Shown: positions 6,564 through 10,106, counted from the first letter of the stretch. The stretch is 64,000 bases of DNA from Omnitrophica WOR_2 bacterium GWF2_43_52 (GCA_001805445.1 MHGF01000003.1:54736-118735), one strand, 5' to 3'. Program-made: numbers and translations. The notes: generated by a model not told the origin, from the letters alone.

Positions 6564-7657
6564 GCAAAGTTTTCATCGTCTATGCCTCCGCAGGCGCGGG
6601 ACATCAAAAAGCCGCTGAAGCGCTTTTTGACTACCTTAAAAGAGAATCCCCAAGCCTTGAAATCAGGCTTCTTGACATTTTAGATTATTCCCATCCTTTA
6701 GTTAAGCGTTTATATTCTGACGGATATATATTCCTTATTAGTAAGTTACCATGGGTGTGGTATTTTTTTTATCGTCTCTCTTCTTATCTCGGGAATCATC
6801 CGGTAATTTCTTTAGGTAATTACAGAAATAGCAAGGCATTCTGCGGCCTGCTAAGGAAAGAGAACCCGGATGTCGTCATCTCAACTCACTTTCTCACCAG
6901 CAGTATTATTAGCGTCTTTAAAAGGCGCGCGCTATCCCCTAAGCCGCGTTTAGTTGCCATCATAACCGATTATACCCTGCATCCGTTCTGGATAGGTGAA
7001 GGAGTTGACCTTTATATTACGTCCTGCGCGTATGTAAAGGAACAGCTGGAAAAACGCGGAATCGAGAGCGAGAGAATAAAAGCCTACGGTATTCCGGCAA
7101 AGGATACCTTCTACGTGCCGGCACAACGGAATGAAATTGCCCAAAAGCACAAAATAGCGCCAAAAGAATTCACCGTATTAGTGATTACCGGCGCAATCGG
7201 TATCGGCCCTATTGAGCACATAGTAAAGGCTCTGGCAGGAAAAGCCCAAGTATTGGTCGTATGCGGAAGGAATAAGCGCCTGTTTGAGCGCGTCAGTTTA
7301 ATGCGGCTTCCTTTGGTTAAAGTATTTCCCTTAATCAACTATGTAGATGAGTTGATGTCGGTTTCCGATGTAGTGCTTACTAAGGCAGGGGGCTTAACGA
7401 TAACTGAAAGCCTCGCAAAGAGCCTGCCGATGGTTTTTTTCTCAAGTATCCCTGGATTAGAAACTGCTAATGAGAGGACCCTCAAGCGCTGCGGCGCTGG
7501 CTTTAGAGCTTGCGGGGTTCCGGAGATTGTAAGTACCGTACTTTCTTTAAAAAACGACCCGGGTTTATATACAACGGCTAAGGAAAATATTGAACGCTTT
7601 AGAAGTCAATCAACGCTTAAGGCTATTGCCGATGAACTCAGGCGTTTTACGCGATAA
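6560..7657 (+). CDS. MGDG-synthase-like / GT28-family glycosyltransferase (UgtP/MurG-like fold)
   Basis: The N-terminal 'KVFIVYASAGAGHQKAAEAL' is typical of the MGDG_synth / processive diacylglycerol glycosyltransferase N-domain. The C-terminal 'VLTKAGGLTITESL' is a GT-B donor-binding motif. Confidence 0.6.
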   Translation: MSKVFIVYASAGAGHQKAAEALFDYLKRESPSLEIRLLDILDYSHPLVKRLYSDGYIFLISKLPWVWYFFYRLSSYLGNHPVISLGNYRNSKAFCGLLRKENPDVVISTHFLTSSIISVFKRRALSPKPRLVAIITDYTLHPFWIGEGVDLYITSCAYVKEQLEKRGIESERIKAYGIPAKDTFYVPAQRNEIAQKHKIAPKEFTVLVITGAIGIGPIEHIVKALAGKAQVLVVCGRNKRLFERVSLMRLPLVKVFPLINYVDELMSVSDVVLTKAGGLTITESLAKSLPMVFFSSIPGLETANERTLKRCGAGFRACGVPEIVSTVLSLKNDPGLYTTAKENIERFRSQSTLKAIADELRRFTR

Positions 7658-8661
7658 TGAGCCAAACTTATTTTGTTGATAAGAATAATCGTTTGGTTAT
7701 AAGACGAAAGAGCGCGAAGCTTTTACCGCAAGGTTATTTTTCAGTTGATAACGAAAACCGCCTTGTGTATTGGCTTAATGAGCCGGTTTCCTGGCGCACC
7801 ACCTACCAATTCCCCGATAAACTAATCTTTAGCGGCGCATGGAAAATCAACTCAAAATATGACCTTGAACTTGAGCTTGAGCAAAAGGAACTAGCCTTTC
7901 AAAAAAAGCGGCTAACCCTAAAGGGTAAGCTATTATCTTGCGAAAAAGACCAGATTGTCTTTGAAATACAGACTGTAAACAATAACGGCTTAGACAGCTT
8001 TTACTTGCTCAAATTATCCGGTAGATGGCAGGCGGATGAATATAACCGCCTAACCTTTTTAATAACTAAAAAGGATTCTCCTGACACCCTTACGTTTCAG
8101 GGCTCCTGGCAGCTCAATGAGAATCAGCAGATTACCTATACCTACCAAAAAACGAACCTAAAAACTAAGTCTAAGGTTTCACACACCCTGACCTTTAGCG
8201 GCTATTGGCAAATAACTTCCGCAAAGCGCCTTACCTACATACTTTCAACCGGCGCGCATTCAAGGTTTGATTTTAAGGTTCAGCTTGAGTCTCCCAATAT
8301 TCGTCCCAAAGAAGGGAGTATTAAGTATCGTCTTGGCGTAGGCATAAGGGAGCCAAGAAGGGAAAAAGCAAAGATTATTACCCTTTACGGAGCCTGGAAA
8401 TTCAGCCGTAATGCCGGCGTCATTTTTGAAATGAACCACCGCGAAGGCAGAATATACCGCCTTGAATTCGGGGCGGAAGTAAATTTTAACAGAAACAATC
8501 AAGTAACTTTTAAACTTACCGGACTGAATAGGGAACCGTTAGGTTTGAACCTTACTTTTACCCATAAGCTCTTACAAGAGCTAAACGGAGAACTCTTCAT
8601 TCGCCTAAAAAGATACAGGGATGAATCCGGCGTTGATCTAGGAGTCAAGATTCCATGGTAA
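7657..8661 (+). CDS. Hypothetical protein with ~4 internal beta-rich repeats
   Basis: It is coding-like and coupled to the upstream gene (TGA/ATG overlap). The repeats 'LIFSGAWKINSKYDLEL', 'LTFQGSWQLNENQQITYTY', 'LTFSGYWQITSAKRLTYIL' and 'ITLYGAWKFSRNAGVIFEM' recur about every 45-60 aa. I see no recognisable catalytic motif. Confidence 0.45.
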   Translation: MSQTYFVDKNNRLVIRRKSAKLLPQGYFSVDNENRLVYWLNEPVSWRTTYQFPDKLIFSGAWKINSKYDLELELEQKELAFQKKRLTLKGKLLSCEKDQIVFEIQTVNNNGLDSFYLLKLSGRWQADEYNRLTFLITKKDSPDTLTFQGSWQLNENQQITYTYQKTNLKTKSKVSHTLTFSGYWQITSAKRLTYILSTGAHSRFDFKVQLESPNIRPKEGSIKYRLGVGIREPRREKAKIITLYGAWKFSRNAGVIFEMNHREGRIYRLEFGAEVNFNRNNQVTFKLTGLNREPLGLNLTFTHKLLQELNGELFIRLKRYRDESGVDLGVKIPW

Positions 8662-8761
8662 GTTTTGACGGTTACTAAACAAGCGGGAATTCATCCCTTC
8701 CTGTATCAGTCTACTGTATTCCATCCCTCGACAGTACAAAATTAAAAAAACTAAAAAAATA

Positions 8762-8790
8762 CTGTATTTGTATCATAACTATGTTATAAT
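8762..8790 (+). promoter_or_regulatory. Candidate sigma70-type promoter with extended -10 (TGT-TATAAT) for the protease operon
   Basis: 'tgtTATAAT' lies at 8782-8790 in a 146-bp AT-rich intergenic gap. A weak -35 'ctgtat' sits 17 nt upstream. The direct repeat 'tactgtatt' occurs twice, at about 8714 and 8759. This is sequence-only and was judged against E. coli consensus. Confidence 0.25.
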
Positions 8791-8807
8791 AATACACATT
8801 ATTAGCT

Positions 8808-9083
8808 ATGAAATCACGCAAAATCAAGGTTTTTACCAGATCTGATATAAAAAAGATAAAAGAAAAATACGAGAAGGATTTACTCCTGCTTCCTCATGTA
8901 GTCGGCGTAGGTATAGGGTATAAGATAACACAGGAAAGAGAGAAAAACACCCTTTGTCTAAAAGTATATGTGAGTAAAAAAACCCCTTCCAAAGAACTAT
9001 CCAAGAATAAAACAATCCCGACGCAGCTTGATGGTATTCTTACAGATGTTGAGGAAATCGGTATGGTAAAAGCCTATGCGTAA
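8808..9083 (+). CDS. Small protein (91 aa) paralogous to the N-terminal pro-like domain of the downstream serine protease
   Basis: It shares 'VVGVGIGYKI...LCLKVYV...IPTQLDGILTDVEEIGMVKAYA' with residues about 25-95 of ORF 9076-10002 ('VVGCGIGEKI...ICLKVYV...IPQAVSLIETDVEEIGKIKALGF'). Its stop overlaps the start of the next gene. Confidence 0.5.
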   Translation: MKSRKIKVFTRSDIKKIKEKYEKDLLLLPHVVGVGIGYKITQEREKNTLCLKVYVSKKTPSKELSKNKTIPTQLDGILTDVEEIGMVKAYA

Positions 9084-10002
9084 ACAATCTATGGCAGATA
9101 TCTATACGAATTTACAGGATAAGGAAACATGGCTCTTAGAAAAAGCCAATGTGGTCGGTTGTGGTATAGGCGAAAAGATTAAAGCGGGGCTTCCTCTGGG
9201 CCGGATTTGTCTTAAAGTTTATGTTGAGATAAAACTTCCTCTTAATAAACTCGCTAAGCATGATATTATCCCCCAAGCAGTATCTCTTATTGAGACTGAT
9301 GTTGAGGAAATCGGTAAAATCAAGGCTTTAGGCTTTACCGGCCGCTACCGCCCGGCATTAGGAGGCTCATCAATTGGCCATTATCAAATCACCGCGGGCA
9401 CTTTAGGTTGTCTGGTAAAGGATAAGGCCACTCATGAAATCCTTATTCTCAGCAATAATCACGTCTTAGCCAATTCCAATGAGGCTAAAAAAGGCGATAG
9501 CATCCTGCAACCCGGGCCCTATGATGGGGGAAAAAAGGCGAAAGATACCATTGGTACCTTAGAAAGGTGGGTTGAGATTAAGTTTGGTAAAGAGGCCAAT
9601 CTCATAGATGCCGCCTTAGCAAGGCCCAAGAGCCAAAAATTAGTGAAGCCTGAGATAATGGAAATAGGAGCACCTTTGGGGACTATAAAGCCTAAATTGG
9701 GCATGCTTATTCAAAAGTCAGGAAGGACAACCGGTTACACCGCGGGGAAGATTAAAGACATTAGCGCTACGATAAAAATAAATTACGACCAAAAAGTAGC
9801 CTTATTCAAAAACCAAATTCTCACCACGAATATGTCACAGGGAGGAGATTCCGGTTCTCTGGTTTTGGATATGAAAAAACGCGCCATTGGCCTGCTGTTT
9901 GCAGGCTCAGATGTAGTAACTATTATGAATCCGGTTTTAGAGGTAATAAGGCTACTTAACGTCGTGCCATATTCTATAGTTTCAGAAAAGGTTGAGGAAT
10001 AA
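9076..10002 (+). CDS. Chymotrypsin-fold (S1, streptogrisin/alpha-lytic-protease-like) serine protease with N-terminal pro-like domain; no signal peptide
   Basis: The catalytic triad context is His 'LSNNHVLAN', Asp 'NLIDAALA' and Ser 'QGGDSGSLV'. 'SGRTTGYTAGKIKDISATIKINY' resembles the S1E 'GRTTG...G.I' segment. The N-terminal ~95 aa are duplicated in the upstream small ORF. The N-terminus lacks a hydrophobic signal. Confidence 0.7.
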   Translation: MRKQSMADIYTNLQDKETWLLEKANVVGCGIGEKIKAGLPLGRICLKVYVEIKLPLNKLAKHDIIPQAVSLIETDVEEIGKIKALGFTGRYRPALGGSSIGHYQITAGTLGCLVKDKATHEILILSNNHVLANSNEAKKGDSILQPGPYDGGKKAKDTIGTLERWVEIKFGKEANLIDAALARPKSQKLVKPEIMEIGAPLGTIKPKLGMLIQKSGRTTGYTAGKIKDISATIKINYDQKVALFKNQILTTNMSQGGDSGSLVLDMKKRAIGLLFAGSDVVTIMNPVLEVIRLLNVVPYSIVSEKVEE

Positions 10003-10106
10003 TTCTAATACCAGAAAATGGTACATCGCACGTTGAATATCAAATTGTCCTAAGTTTAAAACTTCCTTATTAAACGAGTGTAGTATTACTTAGAAGGTGC
10101 AATAGT

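Follow-up and report, generated by a model that had tools for sequence, protein, structure and literature searches.

Introduction

NARROW LEAF 1 (NAL1) is an agronomically important yield protease of rice, whose ATP-stabilised cage structure was solved in 2023–2025. We compare it here with two overlapping genes from Omnitrophica WOR_2 bacterium GWF2_43_52, which encode a serine protease and, directly upstream of it, a 91-amino-acid protein homologous to the N-terminal domain of that protease (hereafter the N-domain). The genes lie in a 64 000-nucleotide stretch of DNA (GCA_001805445.1, MHGF01000003.1:54736–118735) that was analysed at its full length and is referred to as the window.

NAL1 is built from an N-terminal domain (residues 1–88), an ATP-binding domain (ABD; residues 89–172) composed of four strands and a curved helix, and a protease domain (residues 184–458) with the catalytic triad H234/D291/S385 (PMC12012508). 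ATP and Mg are held in the ABD by R120, I121, R122, K123, K139, V140, Q149, L151, D166 and V167, and the K139A substitution leads to aggregation and loss of activity (PMC12012508). The ABD packs onto the protease domain of the next subunit and thereby builds a trimer, two such trimers being stapled into an active hexameric cage by a strand of the plant N-terminal domain; in the resulting ring-shaped oligomer the ABD is shaped by the bound nucleotide and the active sites face inward (PMC12012508). The ABD is thus a permanent part of the active oligomer and not a cleaved pro-region (PMC12012508). The comparisons below refer to PDB entries 7Y77, 8HAS/8HAT/8HAU and 8PME–8PN2 and to the Pfam families NAL1_N (PF25608) and Nal1_C (PF25819).

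Two other groups bear comparison with the locus. The S1E proteases (streptogrisins A/B and alpha-lytic protease) share with the window protease the catalytic fold, the GRTTG... and GDSG motifs of the C-terminal barrel and the placing of an accessory domain ahead of the catalytic domain, whereas the window protease is predicted to be cytoplasmic, without a signal peptide or the conserved disulfide cysteines, and sequence and structure searches detected no likeness between its N-domain and the alpha-lytic pro-region. The I9 inhibitors of subtilases resemble the small protein in being separately encoded homologues of a protease N-terminal accessory domain with a potential for action in trans, but fold family and protease clan differ. 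An original prediction, made from the DNA alone, had read the locus along these lines, as an S1E-like protease with an alpha-lytic-type pro-region and a free, I9-like copy of that region encoded next to it.

Results

A bacterial homologue of NAL1

In its entirety, the bacterial protease is homologous to plant NAL1, and its catalytic domain is streptogrisin/alpha-lytic-like (S1E-like) in fold. When PDB chains were searched with a profile of the protease family, profile positions 17–277 matched rice NAL1 residues 104–408 (E 2e-5), and the NAL1 chains ranked ahead of the streptogrisin and alpha-lytic enzymes, whose hidden Markov model (HMM) matches (E 6e-5 to 3e-3) were confined to the C-terminal barrel. 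A Foldseek search of the PDB with an AF2 model of the protease (predicted local distance difference test score, pLDDT, 73.8; predicted template modelling score, pTM, 0.79) returned NAL1 at all of ranks 1–33 with full-length coverage (E 1.8e-12 to 1.7e-10; template modelling score, TM, 0.62–0.68 on the query), followed by the S1E enzymes 2sfa, SGPB, L5 and alpha-lytic protease (E 2e-9 to 1e-7; TM 0.6–0.7 on the target), which covered the catalytic domain alone. Because NAL1 ranks first over the full length and the S1E enzymes match only the catalytic domain, we conclude that an S1E-like fold is set within a NAL1-homologous whole; the earlier assignment to S1E is thus upheld by Foldseek and HMM matches for the catalytic fold, but gives way to NAL1 for the entire protein. 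Besides NAL1, the nearest solved relatives of the catalytic domain are SGPA/SGPB, the S. fradiae protease and alpha-lytic protease. In Pfam the protease passed the Nal1_C cut-off marginally (26.8 bits versus 26.1), with a weaker match to Trypsin_2, and many of its homologues carry a precomputed PF25819 assignment.

The catalytic motifs named in the original prediction, NNHV (H129), DAALA (D178), GDSGS (S259) and GRTTGYTAG, are all present. None of the three triad residues varies among 39 aligned homologues, and in the profile alignment they coincide with H234, D291 and S385 of NAL1. The window protease also has the domain order of NAL1, with the ABD-like domain ahead of the chymotrypsin-fold domain, and a segment aligned with NAL1 beta-strand 11. 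Like NAL1, it is expected to be intracellular: the N-termini of both window proteins are long, charged and predicted to be helical, so that on inspection neither appears to carry a signal peptide, and both are, as had been noted, nearly free of cysteine (one in the small protein, three in the protease). The two differ in that sequence identity is 16–20%, that the window protease lacks the C-terminal tail, that only about 16 residues precede its ABD-like domain, leaving no counterpart of plant residues 1–88 (which include strand beta1), and that the bacterial locus encodes a second, separate ABD-like copy, for which NAL1 has no equivalent.

A free copy of the N-domain

Sequence comparison shows the 91-amino-acid protein to be paralogous to protease residues 1 to ~88. 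Its residues 10–91 align without gaps with protease residues 5–86, 35 of the 82 positions being identical (43%; BLASTP E=1e-14), a similarity far beyond chance that confirms its earlier description as a stand-alone N-domain homologue. The predicted topology comprises a helix (residues 11–26) and three strands (31–41, 48–57 and 77–86). The match of the small protein itself to NAL1_N (E=6.5e-5, 23 bits) falls under the cut-off of 27; 14 of 15 orthologues of the small open reading frame (ORF) also match this family (best 6e-11), and the 15 orthologue clusters share 18 invariant columns. A profile of 91 free and fused N-domain sequences matched NAL1 residues 113–166 (E 3.5e-6) and nothing but NAL1 in the PDB at E<=10, and the protease's own N-domain aligned with NAL1 residues 104–172.

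On the HMMER register, residues 17–85 of the bacterial N-domain correspond to the NAL1 ABD, and we regard this register as reliable because its numbering reproduces the identities of all cited NAL1 ligand residues. The equivalents of the ATP-Mg ligands are then K39, K58 and D80-V81 in the small protein and K34, K53 and D75-V76 in the protease. Counted over 35 free and 81 fused N-domains, the equivalent of NAL1 R120 is K or R in 32 of the free and all 81 fused copies, that of K139 is K throughout (35/35 and 81/81), and the D-V of the TDVEEIG motif, which corresponds to D166-V167 at the NAL1 Mg site, is found in 33/35 and 78/81 respectively. Both copies therefore appear to have kept the core of a site for a nucleotide or polyanion.

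Both ORFs lie on the + strand where they had been predicted, and their translational coupling is borne out: the small-ORF stop codon TAA (9081–9083) falls inside the first protease codons (ATGCGTAAA), giving a gene overlap of 8 nt. The annotated starts are supported by the closest homologues, which keep both N-termini, MKSRK... being common to six small-ORF clusters and MRKQ... being kept in the protease homologues P0002 and P0003. Databases already list an identical protease for a Candidatus Omnitrophica metagenome-assembled genome (MAG).

Distribution, gene order and fusions

Nearly all of the scored candidates in the protease family search were significant (7,995/8,000), and relatives are encoded in at least 570 species-representative genomes, as detected by an alignment-based scan of genome contigs; a single-sequence scan of the same kind found no relative. 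The N-domain profile retrieved 5,565 cluster representatives at 50% identity. A domain-HMM scan of the 80 best species-level genome loci found a free N-domain gene directly upstream of the protease and on the same strand in 34, from Omnitrophota, many Chloroflexota, two Actinomycetota and one 'Proteobacteria' MAG. The distance from the free-domain stop to the fused N-domain match had a median of ~66 nt and was at most 150 nt in 31/35 cases (the window included). A more divergent free copy was encoded downstream in 13 of the 80 loci, within 80 nt in 11 of these 13 (Chlorobiaceae, gamma- and delta-proteobacteria, Opitutae and one Chloroflexia). The original prediction had named failure of the small gene to accompany the protease in other genomes as evidence against itself; since the two do co-occur, it survives in this respect, and also as regards the kinship of the small ORF to the protease N-domain and the intact catalytic triad.

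Free-standing N-domains of 76–164 amino acids made up 89 of the 150 best N-domain representatives, followed by N-protease (43), N-N-protease (8), tandem NN, NNN or NNNN proteins (6), N-protease-N (2) and protease-N (2, at least one of which looks partial). One N-N-protease, P0010, is a continuous 381-amino-acid ORF on its contig, with 73% identity to the window protease. Conserved adjacency together with recurrent fusion is a classical signature of physically interacting partners, and on this genomic pattern the two proteins would be expected to associate. The nearest relative of a free copy was another free copy in 33/34 cases. A neighbour-joining tree (80-column domain, 30 bootstrap resamples) did not separate a single from several origins of the free copies; it placed 28/35 of them, mostly from Chloroflexota, in one clade, and the Omnitrophota free copies grouped neither with this large free clade nor with their own fused domains.

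Several further arrangements were seen among the relatives. In 21 of the 80 loci there is no upstream free-domain gene and the protease is followed by a conserved ORF of ~300–320 amino acids (e.g. L009 1499–2281, L010 1632–2555, L013 6967–7869, L046 956–1915, and 17 more), starting 0–67 nt after the protease in the 18 loci in which spacing was measured. These loci come from Campylobacterales, Rhizobiaceae, Sulfitobacter, Desulfocapsaceae, gamma-proteobacteria and Trueperaceae. The encoded protein carries the motifs NDkWyNsK and QynW, gave no match in Pfam and PADLOC searches, and could be a different partner for the protease, or else its substrate. L010 and L046 additionally have a weak N-like ORF ~1.1 kb downstream, past this gene. 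Upstream of the P0010 fusion (L121, 723–1476) lie an NTP_transf_5 protein with a faint AbiEii-like match and then a 73-amino-acid ORF, which might form a toxin-antitoxin-like pair in this one occurrence. Proteins with two to four tandem N-domains and no recognisable protease domain (P0149, 255 amino acids; P0165, 434 amino acids; P0137, P0143, P0154 and P0234) indicate that the domain also occurs as a repeat module.

Relatives were also found on mobile elements. Plasmid pCN2 of Clostridium novyi (L120; NZ_CP029460.1, 668–16959) carries at least nine clustered N-domain+protease paralogues with 36–42% identity to the window protein, adjoining toxin-type genes (for an aerolysin-family toxin, PI-PLC and clostripain). 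C. botulinum group III plasmids likewise gave multi-copy matches, whereas plasmids of Bacillus cereus/thuringiensis, Rhizobium and Ralstonia gave single copies. None of these plasmid copies, those on pCN2 included, is accompanied by a free N-domain gene. Protease relatives with 34–48% identity, nearly all of N-domain+protease form, were present on 39 viral-classified IMG/VR contigs (L081–L119), some of which may be prophage-bearing or misclassified, as several exceed 100 kb.

Genomic context and non-coding elements

The features of the locus are collected in Table 1. As originally described, glycan-synthesis genes stand on both flanks of the pair, the gene annotation listing GT9, ManC, DegT, GT2, HAD, an MGDG-synthase-like glycosyltransferase, AsnB-like and GFO proteins, a CMP-sugar transferase, NeuB and a 2-epimerase. 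All 58 gene-like ORFs of at least 120 amino acids in the window (1–64000) are on the + strand, forming one co-directional array that opens with glycan and lipopolysaccharide-type genes.

Table 1. Positions of the gene pair, its domains and the adjoining spacers in the window.
Feature	Position	Strand	Basis or remark
Small ORF, stand-alone N-domain gene, 91 aa	8808–9083	+	NAL1_N / ABD-like homologue
NAL1-like serine protease gene, 308 aa	9076–10002	+	N-domain + linker + chymotrypsin-fold domain
N-domain of protease, residues 1–88	9076–9339	+	Domain HMM match, NAL1 alignment, residue conservation counts
Linker (residues ~88–108), then serine-protease domain	9340–9966	+	Serine-protease domain HMM match, invariant columns, NAL1 alignment
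Catalytic codons of protease	H129 9460–9462; D178 9607–9609; S259 9850–9852	+	
AT-rich upstream spacer, 146 nt	8662–8807	+	GC 0.32–0.34
Spacer between protease and asparagine-synthase-like gene, 104 nt	10003–10106	+	

The proposal that the pair is an inserted module found no support in base composition. The protease has a GC content of 0.425 and a third-codon-position GC content (GC3) of 0.414, the small ORF has a GC content of 0.362, and the codon-usage deviation of the latter is of the size expected from a 91-codon sample. Recent horizontal insertion was rejected because GC and GC3 of both genes are ordinary for the window (z-scores within about ±1.5 standard deviations of its genes) and because in a relative with 72% identity (L001) the pair is likewise preceded by the gene for this glycosyltransferase, as an orthologue. 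Outside this clade the neighbours of the pair are unrelated and differ between phyla, so that nothing points to a link with glycan metabolism, and a functional tie to glycan synthesis was set aside as unsupported. Membership of a defence system was likewise rejected, PADLOC searches at E<=0.1 having matched neither protein of the pair nor the ORF upstream of it. This upstream ORF (7657–8661, 334 amino acids) lies directly 5' of the pair; its best Pfam match (E 0.0027) is far under the cut-off, NCBIfam and PADLOC searches gave none, and it is missing from the otherwise syntenic L001, where a different small hydrophobic ORF stands between the glycosyltransferase gene and the small N-domain gene.

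The upstream spacer had been described as an AT-rich promoter region with direct repeats. Its sequence elements are indeed there: an extended -10-like TGTTATAAT at 8782–8790, 18 nt 5' of the small-ORF ATG, and two copies of TACTGTATT at 8712–8720 and 8760–8768, a 9-mer that occurs three times in the window versus 0.48 expected. A generic promoter scan called no promoter in this spacer, since a -35 element is absent, and TACTGTATT was found in none of the 80 related loci, for which reason it was rejected as a conserved operator; the spacer may act as a promoter or operator. An intrinsic terminator scan detected none on either side of the pair, and read-through from the pair across the 3' spacer into the downstream glycan genes is therefore possible. 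An Rfam search of the spacers gave no credible match, and regulatory RNAs were discarded as candidates on that ground. A perfect 10-nt inverted repeat, AGGGATGAAT / ATTCATCCCT (8617–8626 and 8689–8698, 62 nt apart), spans the stop codon of ORF 7657–8661 and is not followed by a T-run.

Discussion

A proposed two-component NAL1-type protease

The identity of the parts is secure, as regards the homologies, the catalytic triad, the residues at ligand positions, the coupling of the genes, their pairing across phyla and their fusions. For the way in which these parts work together, we favour, at a probability of roughly 60%, a cytoplasmic serine protease of NAL1 type that has two components, one of them an accessory subunit that probably binds nucleotide. 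By analogy with NAL1, the N-domains would bind nucleotide, and the large subunit would oligomerise through its nucleotide-stabilised N-domain packing on the protease domain of a neighbour, presumably yielding a ring-shaped oligomer with inward-facing active sites. The small protein, made in step and in fixed proportion with the protease by virtue of the overlapping genes, would be a free copy of the interface domain. As an accessory subunit it would dock in trans on the protease domain, and could thereby set the oligomeric state, gating or activity of the enzyme.

Several observations weigh against this proposal. At the presumed nucleotide site, the equivalents of NAL1 R122 and K123 are conserved in neither free nor fused copies, and the mapping of D80 to D166 shifts by two residues between alignments, being ambiguous because NAL1 reads D164-V-D166-V. 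The structural models are of moderate confidence, with one of five AF2 models of the protease above pLDDT 70; for the small protein modelled in isolation (pLDDT 72.7), Foldseek gave no significant match, NAL1 being listed alongside generic alpha/beta folds with E~0.1. Since the bacterial proteins have no counterpart of the strand by which the plant N-terminal domain holds NAL1 trimers together, their oligomeric state may differ. Finally, a free N-domain gene is absent from 33 of the 80 loci, was found within 5 kb of the protease on none of the 39 viral contigs and accompanies none of the clostridial plasmid copies, and the free domain is thus dispensable family-wide.

The alternative that survives best, although we consider it unlikely, sees the N-domain as an alpha-lytic-like pro-region that serves as foldase and then as bound inhibitor, possibly with autocleavage in the linker, and the free paralogue as a foldase or inhibitor whose dedicated task is to act in trans on a kinetically trapped protease. 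S1E enzymes are second only to NAL1 in closeness to the catalytic domain, the N-domain occupies the exact position of the S1E pro-regions, and damage to the nucleotide site of the NAL1 ABD causes misfolding and aggregation, which implies that the domain matters for folding and assembly. Moreover, the linker (residues ~88–108), modelled with low pLDDT, contains the invariant residues R92-P93 and G97 and is followed in the 39-homologue alignment by a GG-SIG...GTLGC segment, which we take to resemble the start of mature S1E enzymes. No test made here lent support to this alternative, however: Pfam models of the alpha-lytic pro-domain and of I9 and I78 matched neither protein nor any of the 15 orthologues, and none of the three was among the PDB profile matches at E<=10. 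The N-domain matches NAL1_N and the rice NAL1 ABD instead, and the homologous NAL1 domain stays in the active enzyme, so that neither the alpha-lytic-type pro-region nor the I9-type inhibitor of the original prediction is supported, the latter having found no I9 or I78 counterpart in sequence or structure searches. The pro-region-like position and the invariant linker residues keep in play a deep relationship to S1E pro-regions, or autoprocessing, either of which may apply, and foldase- or inhibitor-like action in trans may be one among several modes open to a free copy of the interface domain.

It is quite improbable, in our view, that the free domain is a dominant-negative antagonist, which would occupy the surface meant for the N-domain of a neighbour, block ring assembly and hold the protease inactive until the small protein is removed or takes on another nucleotide state. 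Such a role would draw on the ABD-protease interface that builds the NAL1 trimer and on the need for correct higher-order assembly for activity; the domain core is retained in the free copy, and co-translation from overlapping genes would suit a stoichiometric, antidote-like partner. Under pure competition, however, the natural N-N-protease fusions would be permanently self-inhibited, and the extra conservation of the N-terminal helix in free copies hints at an interface of their own. That the small ORF is left over from a partial tandem duplication, or does something that has no bearing on the protease, with adjacency reflecting origin alone, is very improbable, for although many family members function without a free domain and the neighbour-joining tree does not establish a shared origin of the free copies across phyla, the abundance of free-standing representatives, the 18 invariant columns, the orientation and spacing kept in 34+13 loci of several phyla and the repeated fusions to the protease do not fit a decaying relic.

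Implications

Within the two-component NAL1-type protease that we favour, the free ABD-like protein could go further and act as a nucleotide-sensing assembly switch, joining rings into an active cage, or gating it, in trans, a speculation that we hold to be rather improbable. If true, the switch would perform in trans the job of the plant-specific NAL1 N-terminal domain, would tie proteolysis to ATP status through a separate, titratable subunit, and would represent an undescribed two-component form of self-compartmentalising serine protease; it would also hint at how plant NAL1 came by its three domains, through fusion of a pair of this kind, N-N-protease fusions being already present in bacteria.

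Full-text literature searches returned NAL1 papers on plants alone and nothing on bacterial homologues or a free ABD-like partner, although their coverage was incomplete and this is weak evidence of absence. The family is very large in bacteria, with thousands of protein clusters in addition to the species-level genomes counted above, and in several phyla the ABD/interface domain has a small gene of its own as well, in some cases joined to the protease again by fusion. The likely default annotation of the pair, 'S1 family peptidase' plus 'hypothetical protein', is corrected accordingly. The pair provides a tractable bacterial system for the role of the nucleotide-binding domain in NAL1-type proteases, and a candidate evolutionary route to the architecture of plant NAL1.

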